Below are positions 56,210-64,000 of a DNA stretch of 64,000 bases, piece after piece. The stretch lies in IMG/VR virus record IMGVR_UViG_2863371048_000001; one strand, given 5' to 3'. The position numbers and the translations under genes were made by a program. The notes beneath the pieces are model-generated. The model ran no database searches. It was not told the origin of the DNA and saw only the letters and a program-made list of their open reading frames with translations. Each line of letters begins with the position of its first letter. The first letter of the stretch is position 1. Source of the DNA: a virus (lineage: Duplodnaviria; Caudoviricetes).

Positions 56210-56380
56210 TTAGCAGAACTCGCAGCCTGGCACGCGCTTGAGCAAGTGATCGCGTTCGTGAGTCCGCAACGCGTCGGCCTCCGCCGCCAGTTGCTCACGG
56301 GTGACATACCCGCCGAGATTACACATCTCCGCGTGTCCCTCGGCCCGGCCGCAGCCGACACAGACAAGGTTGCTACTCAT
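56210..56380 (-). CDS. small Cys/His-rich (Zn-binding) protein
   Basis: hand-translated MSSNLVCVGCGRAEGHAEMC...GCEFC; GAGGAG RBS. Confidence 0.55.
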   Translation of the reverse strand: MSSNLVCVGCGRAEGHAEMCNLGGYVTREQLAAEADALRTHERDHLLKRVPGCEFC

Positions 56381-56438
56381 GGGCTCTCCTCGGGGTCGTG
56401 GGGTCAGGGTACGGCGCGCGGAATGAAGATCGCCGGGA

Positions 56439-56466
56439 GTGGCGGATAATCCGAGCTATCGGCCAG
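56439..56466. other. dif/res-like 11-6-11 recombination site
   Basis: GTGGCGGATAA-TCCGAG-CTATCGGCCAG, 4 nt after the recombinase stop. Confidence 0.5.
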
Positions 56467-56470
56467 CTCG

Positions 56471-57445
56471 TCAGAGGACCATCGCAACCCGCTGCGAAGG
56501 GTCTGTTTCCAGCCGCTTCTTCGCATGGATGTAAATCTTGGTCGTCTCGGGCGAAACGTGACCAAGGGCGTCTTGGAGCTCAGCGAGGGACGCACCCTCC
56601 TCGTCGCCCAACGTGGCGAACGTGTGCCGCAACGCGTGCGGGGTGACACGATCCGGATATTCCACCCCCGCCTCCCGGGCGATCCGCCGCACAAGATCGA
56701 ACAGGTAGCGTGCGGACACCGGCCGGCCGCCCGAGGTCGCGAACAACGGAGCCGACTCCTCGAACGCCACCCCGCCCTCCCGTTCCAGCCGCTCCGCCAG
56801 ATACCGGTCCACCGCCGCGGCTGTCGTCGGCGGCATGTTCCGCAGCCGGACCTTCTGCCCCTTGCCGACGATCCGCACCGTGCGGAACCCGCGCTCGAAT
56901 CCCAGCGACCCGATCGTGAGACTCGACACCTCCGCGGCACGGGGCCCGATCGACAGCATGAACCGGATCAGCGCCGCCGTCCGGAGCTGTGCCCGGCCGC
57001 TGCCCGCCTCCGCCGTGGCGACCATCGCCCGCGCCTCCGACCGCTCCAATCCCACCGTCTCCGAATGGGTGCGGTCGATCTTCGGCCTCGATGCCCCGGC
57101 GAACTTGTTCACCGGCAGCACGTCCTCCAGAACGAGGTAGGTGTACCAACTCGACACCGACGCGAGCTTCAGCCCGACCGTCTTCGGCGCGGGCCGCGGA
57201 TCCCTGTGCTCCAGCCAGCGCGCGTAGAGGTCCCCGTGTGCCCGGGTGGCAGTCAGCGGGTCCAGGTCACGGTCGGAGCAGAACGCCAGCCACTCGCGCA
57301 GGTTCCGCTCGTAGGCCCGCCGGGTGTGCGGGGAACTGAACGACCACAGCCAGCCGACCGTCAGCCGCGAGATGGGGTCGAGCTCCGGGTCCGGCATCTC
57401 CAGCGCGGAGCCGACGATCTCGCCGACGAGGACCTGCCCTCCCAT
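56471..57445 (-). CDS. tyrosine recombinase (XerC/D-like)
   Basis: catalytic R (GPRAAE), K (GKGQK), HxxR (HALRH), LGH...TTKIY; SAM-like N-domain; AAGGAG RBS. Confidence 0.9.
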   Translation of the reverse strand: MGGQVLVGEIVGSALEMPDPELDPISRLTVGWLWSFSSPHTRRAYERNLREWLAFCSDRDLDPLTATRAHGDLYARWLEHRDPRPAPKTVGLKLASVSSWYTYLVLEDVLPVNKFAGASRPKIDRTHSETVGLERSEARAMVATAEAGSGRAQLRTAALIRFMLSIGPRAAEVSSLTIGSLGFERGFRTVRIVGKGQKVRLRNMPPTTAAAVDRYLAERLEREGGVAFEESAPLFATSGGRPVSARYLFDLVRRIAREAGVEYPDRVTPHALRHTFATLGDEEGASLAELQDALGHVSPETTKIYIHAKKRLETDPSQRVAMVL

Positions 57446-57539
57446 GGGTCTCCTTCCAGAGGGGCGCCCGGGCGGGACGCCTCGCGCGTACGGCTGCGCG
57501 TGGGATGCACGCGCGAAACTTATTGATCTTGATTGGTGG

Positions 57540-57714
57540 GGTGCCACGGGGGTGCAACTCGCCTCCGCCGGGAGGGTGCAACGGGAGGTGCCACACCCCT
57601 GCAACCCGGGGTGCAACGAGGAGGTGCAACGGGGGTGCCACACCCCCTCTGACCTGTAACACCCTCGCCCGTTGCACCCCCAGCCCCTCCCGCGAGCCCC
57701 GCCGGGGGTGCAAC
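57540..57714. repeat. clt-like cluster of GGTGC[A/C]AC 8-mers
   Basis: direct copies at 57540, 57551, 57575, 57587, 57610, 57623, 57634 and 57707; inverted copy at 57671. Confidence 0.75.
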
Positions 57715-57719
57715 GGCGA

Positions 57720-63291: not shown

Positions 63292-63298
63292 GCCTCAC

Positions 63299-63329
63299 AG
63301 ATTGCTCCCTAGCGCTGAGGTTTACAAGG
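63299..63329 (-). promoter_or_regulatory. leaderless promoter/operator, copy 2
   Basis: TTGTAA-17-CAATCT-7-GTG; contains CTAGCGCTGAGGTTTACAAGG. Confidence 0.65.
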
Positions 63330-63337
63330 TGAGTGGA

Positions 63338-63556
63338 CTACGGGGCGGGGTACGGCTGACCCGAGCGGTCAGCGTCGGCGACCTCGGAGGGCCGGTGGAG
63401 CAGCGTCAACGGGCCGTAGAGGCGGGCCACATCGTCCAGGGGGGCGAACGTGCCGGACCGGCTCGTCAGATGCAGCCCGAACTCCCGGTAGCCGTGGACG
63501 AACCACAGGACGCCGCGACTGTCGGTGGCGAGGTCTCCAGGCTGGAGCTCGGTCAT
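63338..63556 (-). CDS. small protein of the GD..D..G..W...GPLTL.HRP family
   Basis: GAGGAG RBS; resembles 28..369. Confidence 0.65.
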   Translation of the reverse strand: MTELQPGDLATDSRGVLWFVHGYREFGLHLTSRSGTFAPLDDVARLYGPLTLLHRPSEVADADRSGQPYPAP

Positions 63557-63669
63557 GCGGGTCTCCTCGGTGAGATGGTGCGGCCCCGCCCGGGGGATGC
63601 GGGCGGGGCCGGGTTTGAGCGGCGGCCTCGGTGCCGCGCCACGGGTGATCCGAGGCCGCCAGATCTGGG

Positions 63670-63801
63670 GTGGTCTCGCCCCGCACCTCCAGCCGGGGCG
63701 AGACCACGGTCCCGGCCAGACCCCGGTGACGCCGGGGGCTGCACCTGGCCGGGGGTGGTGCACCTGGTTGCCGCGCCCGCAGCAGTCACGGCAACCAGGT
63801 G
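63670..63801. other. cluster of three hairpins
   Basis: 13-bp, 6-bp and 13-bp perfect stems. Confidence 0.6.
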
Positions 63802-63805
63802 GTCT

Positions 63806-64000
63806 CTACGGGGCGTGCGAGCCGAACCTGACCCCCAACATCCCCGGGGTTTGTGGGCACTGACCCGCTGGCAGCCTGCCTTGCGGGTAGGCGGACGCCC
63901 AGAACTCGCCCAGATACATCGACCACGCCATGTAGAGCTCCGCCTTGCATGCGCTGCATCTCGGCGGCTGGCCCTGGTCGCGGTCGGATTCGGAGGTCAT
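63806..64000 (-). CDS. small Cys-containing hypothetical protein
   Basis: ATG lies at the window edge; CSAC motif. Confidence 0.4.
   Translation of the reverse strand: MTSESDRDQGQPPRCSACKAELYMAWSMYLGEFWASAYPQGRLPAGQCPQTPGMLGVRFGSHAP

Follow-up and report, generated by a model that had tools for sequence, protein, structure and literature searches.

Organization of the Element and Its Insertion Site

The stretch analyzed here, the 64,000-nt sequence of the IMG/VR virus record IMGVR_UViG_2863371048_000001 (hereafter the window; negative numbers denote positions to its left), carries the genes of a siphovirus and, to the right of the lysis genes, a TraB-type conjugation module. The window corresponds to G000:C2:227537-291536 and lies within a 1,263,728-bp chromosomal contig from the genome of a Streptosporangium-like soil actinomycete (G000; 9.0 Mb, 69-70% GC). 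An earlier sequence-only reading had described a leftward operon containing traB, clt, and a tyrosine recombinase gene, contiguous via cargo genes with the phage lysis genes, and had proposed that the whole might be one conjugative phage-plasmid. All of the features described are present, and no host gene lies between the phage part and the TraB module, where that reading had seen no obvious housekeeping gene.

The extent of the inserted DNA was defined by a flank search in relatives, which revealed that both element flanks lie on one contig, 1.3-3.7 kb apart, in the genomes G012 (∼90% identity) and G007. Window -5426..-5005 aligned with G012 2037-2458 and window 66032..68523 with G012 2449-5001, and the breakpoint derived from G007 was identical to that derived from G012. 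These empty-site alignments delimit an element of 71,046 bp (window -5007..66038; G000:C2:222529-293574), which contains the entire window and extends 5.0 kb to its left and 2.0 kb to its right. The uninterrupted target gene of G012 encodes an SPFH/Band_7 protein of 308 aa; in G000, the Band_7 gene is broken into parts of 108 and 206 aa that lie 71 kb apart. Because the flanks meet at a single point in two empty-site relatives, the phage genes and the TraB module are physically one element that entered by a single precise insertion and is bounded by one pair of attachment (att) sites.

The left and right junctions were located at L001:∼14993 (attL; window ∼-5007), which reads GTGTCGAA/TGAGAC, and at L006:∼12039, equivalent to L002:∼2039 (attR; window ∼66038), which reads ATGTCTAA/AGACAAC. 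In G012, the corresponding attB has the sequence GTGTCGAAGGACAAC. The three junctions have no more than a few bases in common, which fits the action of a serine integrase; the crossover dinucleotide is ambiguous, one base being mismatched under either reading of the junctions. A gene for a large serine integrase of 486 aa, with Resolvase, Recombinase, and Zn_ribbon_recom domains, is present to the left of the window (L001:15037-16497; window -4963..-3503; plus strand) and starts ∼44 bp inside attL. The best database matches of this protein are Gordonia phage serine integrases, to which it is ∼36% identical. Outside the element lie a pirin gene on the left (-6625..-5693) and, on the right, an IclR regulator gene (66666-67520, minus strand) followed by glcF/E/D-like genes, malate synthase, and HflX. 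Scans for tRNA genes detected none in the window or in either flank.

Because it lies within the 1.26-Mb chromosomal contig, the element is chromosomally integrated in this assembly rather than a free plasmid. The reconstructed attP and attB junctions were both absent from the assembly. Logan contigs of the probable source run yielded, over attR, one bridging contig and no other joints, a type of evidence that cannot reveal rare excised forms, and Logan word depth was 21 inside the element against 18.5 in the host flank, a difference that is neutral on excision since contigs cannot give copy number. Of the phage-plasmid proposal, therefore, the unity of the element is borne out by the single insertion and single att pair, but its plasmid nature is not, given the chromosomal contig, the missing attP/attB junctions, and the absence of ParA and ParB matches detailed below. 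Likewise, the two ends of the window, which had been pictured as joined through an unseen control region, run instead to attL and attR. Contig topology and the sequence past both ends, to which the same reading had pointed as informative, thus disclosed an integrated element with one att pair and host genes outside.

A second att pair, such as would separately bound the two parts, was sought by direct-repeat searches of 53000-57000 and 44000-57000 against 57000-68000 and by finer local scoring; only chance-level matches were returned, and one pair bounds the whole. The best direct repeat, a 16-mer at 55950 and 67400, was rejected as an att pair, the latter copy being situated in the host IclR gene outside the insertion.

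The TraB Module

The traB gene (57720-59957, minus strand) encodes an FtsK-like conjugative translocase of double-stranded DNA comprising 745 aa. The protein matched the NCBIfam plasmid_TraB model NF041214 (E 4e-116, profile positions 5-631 of 639) with 389 bits, under the 800-bit equivalog cut-off, and by its sequence is a divergent member of the family. It possesses a Walker A motif, GMTGAGKS, at residue 282, a Pfam FtsK_gamma winged helix at residues 548-604, and two N-terminal hydrophobic segments at residues ∼59 and ∼121. TraB is ∼28-35% identical to the products of annotated traB genes of Streptomyces plasmids, as assessed by tblastn, and is matched by the PHROGs family phrog_24831 (E 3e-85). 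Comparison with the copy on a related IMG/VR contig, IMGVR_UViG_3300049171_000040 (see below), gave a ratio of nonsynonymous to synonymous substitution rates (dN/dS) of ∼0.26, and TraB thus appears to be under purifying selection.

The motif GGTGC[A/C]AC occurs nine times, eight in direct and one in inverted orientation, within ∼175 bp (57538-57715) that lie immediately after the end of traB, on the side facing the recombinase gene. Exact copies of GGGTGCAAC number six in the 64-kb window, all of them within this array. The sole 8-mer cluster on the 100-kb IMG/VR contig is also a GGTGC[A/C]AC array and is likewise found just after its traB. The array is a candidate for clt, the locus bound by TraB. 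The sequence-only reading was correct that neither a Rep nor an xis gene intervenes between traB and the recombinase gene, the gap containing repeats only.

Transmembrane scans identified two membrane protein genes upstream of traB, which encode proteins of 79 aa (60340-60579, minus strand) and 500 aa (60576-62078, minus strand). The larger gene had been called traA; its presence is confirmed, but the names of its homologues identify the product as a DUF2637-family membrane protein. Homologues of the DUF2637 protein were found only in Streptosporangiaceae, mostly in Streptosporangium, several being named DUF2637, and the two genes are syntenic with TraB in three elements. The remainder of the leftward operon within the window consists of small open reading frames (ORFs) of 107, 210, 141, and 64 aa (62166..64000, minus strand) with no family match apart from a weak phiSA1p31-related one. 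To the right of the window, the operon continues with an ATPase-like ORF of 143 aa (L006:9997-10428, minus strand), which is followed by genes for a GntR/UTRA-like regulator (L006:10439-11215, plus strand) and a GntR regulator (L006:11333-11764, plus strand), both with GntR matches in NCBIfam and PHROGs. The final 10 kb of the element is therefore a leftward operon with its promoter end near attR, the rightward GntR pair lying between operon and attR, and the module ends 270 bp from attR. A RepSA/xis set beyond position 64000, considered by the sequence-only reading as the mark of an ordinary actinomycete integrative and conjugative element (AICE), is not there: the ATPase-like ORF and the two regulator genes lead straight to attR.

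No match to ParA (AAA_31) or ParB was obtained anywhere in the element, which extends to its full length the earlier remark that no ParAB was in view, and Prim-Pol and RepAM/DUF3631 gave no match in C2:222529-293574. As regards RepSA, no Pfam or NCBIfam replication-family match was seen among the module proteins scanned; no dedicated RepSA profile was run, and no module ORF longer than 210 aa is unassigned. G000 additionally encodes a second, canonical TraB (C1:2984351-2986294; 883 bits, above the NCBIfam cut-off), whose gene is directly followed by Prim-Pol and DUF3631/RepAM genes (C1:2984351-2988480) in an ordinary AICE/plasmid-type arrangement. A near-identical-scoring copy of this canonical TraB is carried on G010:C19.

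The longest ORF of the tyrosine recombinase gene spans 56471-57643 (minus strand; PF00589 and PF02899), but since its 5′ portion runs into the clt repeats, translation probably starts near 57445. XerC and XerD are its best NCBIfam models, with scores far under their cut-offs, and catalytic-type motifs (HALRH and KIYIH) are present. The gene is internal, ∼9.6 kb from attR. A dif-like inverted repeat with a 6-nt spacer (56439..56466), a candidate resolution site, lies a few nucleotides past the recombinase stop codon. The homologous gene of the Streptosporangium sp. CA-115845 prophage (described below) is accompanied at the corresponding place by CGATAA-CGCGGA-TTATGCG, of the type CGATAA-N6-TTATGCG. 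The recombinase is 50% identical to its positional counterparts in the CA-115845 and IMG/VR elements, each of which has, besides its Xer-like recombinase, a separate integrase at the element end. To judge from these sequence features, the gene and its site probably form a resolvase or multimer-resolution cassette rather than an integration system, a role that would explain why neither xis nor Rep stands beside the recombinase.

The Phage Genes and Their Relatives

Rightward early genes occupy ∼29 kb from attL and encode a small helix-turn-helix (HTH) protein, a T4-type RNA ligase, a C5 methylase, an AAA_24 protein, a Bro-N/KilAC antirepressor, and a DnaB-like helicase. The RNA ligase (T4 Rnl1-like), the C5 cytosine methylase, and the antirepressor are at 4995-6077, 8034-9080, and 21524-22411, respectively. 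The assignment of phage-type replication genes to 11021-13080 holds, the DnaB-like replicative helicase (11827..13080, plus strand) being matched by phrog_19 (E 2.8e-31). The preceding ORF (10865..11827, plus strand) has no Pfam match and contains iteron-like CTCACTGAG repeats at 11217-11458, arranged as two pairs with 11-bp spacing in inverted orientation. Its position and repeats mark this ORF as a putative replication initiator or origin, and 11217-11458 is likely to be the phage replication origin.

The late genes, all on the plus strand, begin with terS (24422-24955) and terL (24870-26522), a terminase pair matched by phrog_83/phrog_9. The portal (27000-28373), head maturation protease (28370-29467), and HK97-type major capsid protein (29479-30741; PF05065) genes that follow correspond to the set phrog_12/phrog_80/phrog_10. 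Head-tail adaptor and tail genes extend over 34877..44109 (phrog_442, phrog_13339, and phrog_5313), with a 1407-aa tape measure protein encoded at 38696-42919 and a distal tail protein at 42904-44109, and are succeeded by genes for a holin (45644-46093; PF23778) and an endolysin (46199-46909; phrog_9589). The packaging, head, tail, and lysis genes are in canonical siphovirus order, and every one examined is an intact ORF; the siphovirus gene set is complete-looking.

No close relative was found among deposited phages, the capsid protein being at most 44% identical to any of them. Among 400 genomes of the family, prophages of G347 (capsid 81% identical) and G268 (capsid 60% identical) were collinear with the element across the head and tail genes. 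The G347 prophage, delimited by comparison with the empty site of G462, is 63.7 kb in length and has a serine integrase at the corresponding end. Comparison of the right arms by tblastx gave noise at this GC content, and protein-level tblastn was used instead. The right arm of the G347 prophage contains lysin, NUDIX, GntR/UTRA, GntR, methyltransferase, radical-SAM, XRE, and HAD genes. Because different genes are carried there, the right arm is an accessory region of variable content, and not every member of the lineage has TraB. The NUDIX, GntR/UTRA, and GntR genes of G347 (L030:18654-19199 and L031:367-1596) recall the Pif/KorSA pair of pSAM2-type AICEs. The same prophage contains an intact homologue (L029:2581-3366; 41-49% identity) of the SPFH/Band-7 gene disrupted by the G000 element, which may compensate for target genes of this kind or may be a coincidence.

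Recurrence of the Module on a Second Phage Backbone

Of the 39 other genomes of the genus, 9 encode homologues 70-78% identical to TraB, and the surroundings of these homologues have no phage gene in common with the element. The closest DUF2637 homologues led to a counterpart of the whole arrangement in Streptosporangium sp. CA-115845 (CP191988.1), of which ∼109 kb was walked by successive look-ups. Here, a different phage forms a prophage of ∼102 kb in which the module lies between cargo and lysis genes on one side and the host junction on the other. From that junction inward, the order is GntR (71% identical), GntR/UTRA (50%), small genes, DUF2637 (62%), TraB (768 aa, 24% identical to the TraB of the window), WhiB, and the Xer-like recombinase (50%), followed by HU, an HTH_17 protein, and cargo that includes APH. 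Converging on this cargo are genes for a CHAP lysin, Dit, a 1360-aa tape measure protein, tail tube, HK97 capsid, SPP1 portal, terL, and terS, beyond which are >45 kb of early genes, a divergent HTH pair, and, at the far end, a tyrosine integrase ∼102 kb from the module-side junction. The layout is thus the mirror image of that in G000, on a different phage. The GntR-side junction (L037:∼6442-6490; CP191988.1 ∼7559140) coincides with the 5′ half of a tRNA-Arg(TCT), which ends in the anticodon loop. ARAGORN found no intact tRNA at this junction, and the tRNA-Arg may be split or may be regenerated at the far junction.

The IMG/VR contig IMGVR_UViG_3300049171_000040 (100,074 bp; CheckV ∼90%) encodes a TraB 73% identical to that of the window and is 70-78% identical to the CA-115845 phage at the nucleotide level in the structural genes. 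It starts with terS, terL, portal, capsid, tape measure, lysin, and cargo genes; these are followed by leftward Xer-like recombinase, TraB, and DUF2637 genes, a rightward GntR gene, 112 bp, a gene for a 373-aa tyrosine integrase, early genes, and an HNH endonuclease gene. The GntR and integrase ends, which in CA-115845 form the two host junctions, are here contiguous, with no host DNA between them, and the termini of the contig fall between HNH and terS. In cos phages with an HNH-terminase arrangement, the packaging site is expected between these two genes. Such an order, TraB module included, is the one to be predicted for an element of this kind in its unintegrated or packaged state. The attP region of the IMG/VR contig failed to align with the CA-115845 junction, and an att site was accordingly not assigned to either of these two elements.

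A further 35-kb JGI contig (3300045996), assessed from its gene table only, has an integrase, a GntR pair, a DUF2637 protein, and a 632-aa gene adjacent to one another. G000 was the only one of 40 species genomes of the genus in which a TraB match was found <30 kb from an HK97 capsid match on one contig, a count to be read in light of the fragmentation of many of these assemblies and of the omission of capsids outside PF05065. The phage-TraB architecture is uncommon but recurrent. None of the conclusions drawn here depends on the unpublished genomes G019, G024, and G030. Three other candidates were set aside: G014, in which 54 kb separate a TraB-like gene from an HK97 capsid gene, the late genes point away from the former, and nothing else matches; G039:C2 (28 kb), which has TraB-like and GntR genes but no capsid match; and the Nonomuraea gerenzanensis chromosome, in which a TraB 65% identical is surrounded by genes sharing only GntR homologues with the element.

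Several further genes were observed in the phages of this second type. CA-115845 encodes a Ro60/TROVE protein with a vWA domain (L042:17198-18868) and has a T4-type RNA ligase together with a PNKP gene at L047:10375-12362, suggesting an RNA-repair set. Both the IMG/VR contig and CA-115845 contain two additional genes between the capsid and head-tail genes (L050:6107-8715 and L040:6365-8910), those of CA-115845 encoding GT4-family glycosyltransferases, as well as UDP-glucose dehydrogenase and methyltransferase genes upstream of terS. Glycosylation of these virions is possible.

Interpretation of the Element

The TraB-type conjugation module resides in the accessory arm, which extends from the lysis genes to attP. 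The element is, in our judgment, probably a temperate siphovirus prophage that carries this module and could spread either by packaging or by TraB transfer. In such a scheme, the serine integrase would excise the element, and the excised circle would replicate from the phage origin by means of the iteron-bearing gene and the DnaB helicase. The circle could then be packaged into virions; alternatively, TraB acting on the GGTGC[A/C]AC repeats would pump double-stranded DNA into the neighboring mycelium. The Xer-like recombinase would resolve multimers, and the serine integrase would re-insert the element in the recipient. The module would need neither a replicase nor an integrase gene, since replication and integration would be provided by the phage, the phage origin and helicase and the serine integrase being the obvious candidates. 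The two GntR regulators are probably repressors of the transfer operon, comparable to KorA/KorSA of plasmids and AICEs.

A number of observations weigh against this interpretation. The mechanism is drawn from gene content, conservation, and analogy, and the element is known from its integrated assembly form only. No recombination directionality factor or lysogeny repressor was recognized in the element. At 71.0 kb, it is 11% longer than the TraB-less prophage of G347, and packaging of the whole genome is not assured. Prophages of both G347 and G268 are without TraB, and the module is hence not fixed in this phage lineage. In 50,697 deposited phage genomes, no TraB homologue spanning the ATPase domain was detected, only gamma-domain matches. 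Finally, dN/dS was high, 0.7-0.8, for the recombinase and DUF2637 genes, although dS is unreliable at the GC content of third codon positions seen here.

The main rival is that the module was captured from an AICE or plasmid and has no role in transfer between cells, being passive or decaying cargo or serving another function, such as intramycelial spread, exclusion, or regulation, so that the element moves only as a phage. The lack of the Rep and Int/Xis genes of autonomous AICEs is in keeping with such a remnant, as is the absence of TraB from the closest phage relatives, one of which, G347, retains only NUDIX, GntR/UTRA, and GntR genes that could be a reduced version of the module. The close TraB homologues in nine genomes of the genus, in contexts devoid of the phage genes of the element, point in the same direction. 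By contrast, TraB is full length with its motifs present and a dN/dS of ∼0.26, the clt repeats are conserved, and three elements retain one gene order in the module despite TraB identities as low as 24%. Such conservation of order, clt, and TraB fits selection for function and not decay, and we regard capture without transfer as unlikely, if still the alternative to be taken most seriously.

Less probable again is a cryptic phage, with a nonfunctional viral part; the element would then amount to a very large AICE that employs a serine integrase and TraB and carries phage-derived genes along. Serine recombinases are employed by approximately 14% of AICEs, and protein genes are the targets of some AICEs (PMC3218068); moreover, no repressor or directionality factor was recognized, and the phage is known here from genes and not from virions. 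Set against this, the packaging, head, tail, and lysis ORFs are intact and collinear with those of two related prophages, and the related IMG/VR contig begins and ends where packaged DNA should, between HNH and terS. Two independent elements, a prophage and an AICE stacked at a hotspot and each with its own integrase and att sites, would account for the two recombinase genes of different families but are effectively excluded, since the host sequence is broken at one point only, the TraB module is without flanking att-like repeats and follows the phage part with no host gene in between, and the tyrosine recombinase is Xer-like and internal, with homologues that coexist with a separate end integrase in the CA-115845 and IMG/VR elements.

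The presence of a conserved module on two unrelated phage backbones suggests that the combination of a temperate phage with TraB has been selected and is not accidental. It may be proposed tentatively, with somewhat less than even confidence, that conjugative temperate phages form a recurrent class in Streptosporangiaceae. Such phages would integrate by a serine or a tyrosine integrase, keep a dedicated TraB module, and after excision be either packaged or pumped by TraB.

Comparison with Known Systems

The idea of a conjugative phage-plasmid in actinomycetes is not new. The Streptomyces plasmid-phage pZL12 is said, from work by Zhong et al. in 2010, to form infectious particles. A transfer locus is attributed to pZL12 (PMC3583192 and PMC4487206), which is also cited as a well-characterized plasmid with phage-particle genes and ParAB (PMC4487206). 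The annotation of pCQ3 (NC_013449.1) lists a GntR regulator, traA, and traB and then capsid, HK97-gp10, and tail genes. However, pZL12/phiZL12, pCQ3, and pSLE1 are autonomous circular plasmids with RepA and ParAB, whereas the element described here is chromosomal, integrated by a serine integrase, and without a ParA or ParB match. Its TraB is ∼35% identical to that of the Streptomyces plasmid-phages, and the gene order differs in that its traB converges on the late genes. Neither the Xer-like recombinase with its dif-like cassette nor the DUF2637 gene is annotated in the first 50 kb of pCQ3.

With AICEs of the pSAM2, SLP1, and pMEA300 types, the element has in common site-specific chromosomal integration and TraB-type genes for transfer of double-stranded DNA, as well as GntR (KorSA-like) regulators and small Spd-like membrane genes (PMC2440964). 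These AICEs are 10.9-17.3 kb in size (PMC2440964) and reviews of the group describe no element with virion genes (PMC2440964 and PMC3218068). AICEs have RepSA, RepAM, or Prim-Pol beside int-xis, insert in most cases into tRNA genes, and lack virion genes; in contrast, the element is 71 kb in length, yielded none of those Rep families, targets a Band-7 gene, and contains a full phage gene set. In the placement of its integrase beside attP, its insertion into an ORF, its lack of long att repeats, and its siphovirus organization, it resembles temperate actinophages of the phiC31 type. A tyrosine recombinase beside a single inverted-repeat site with a 6-nt spacer, on an element that is expected to occur as a circle, also recalls multimer resolution by P1 Cre/loxP and plasmid Xer/cer, the likeness being one of sequence only. 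Nothing closer was found in the literature on TraB with prophages or phage-plasmids. What is new is the integrated form and the occurrence, on two phage backbones with different integrases, of a conserved module of GntR, DUF2637, TraB, clt, and Xer with a dif-like site.

Phages and conjugative elements are usually seen as separate routes of gene flow, and a prophage with a working single-protein system for transfer of double-stranded DNA would have both. If the proposed dual mode is correct, such a phage could spread without lysis or a receptor, its host range by conjugation would be independent of phage receptors, and chromosomal DNA might be mobilized as by AICEs. The distinction between prophages and integrative and conjugative elements would also be blurred when these are predicted in genomes of actinomycetes, which are major antibiotic producers.

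Accessory Genes between the Lysis Genes and the TraB Module

The accessory block was assigned by Pfam matches. It encodes an XRE regulator of 460 aa (48620-50002, minus strand) and, divergent from it, a four-gene cargo operon of hexapeptide transferase, MurA-like, beta-lactamase-fold, and MurB-like genes (50209-54398, plus strand), beyond which are MazF (54669-55040, minus strand) and Panacea/SocA (55037-55720, minus strand) genes. The mur-like genes have no counterparts in the IMG/VR contig, whereas the XRE regulator and the adjoining gene at 47407-48093 have homologues there at the corresponding place.

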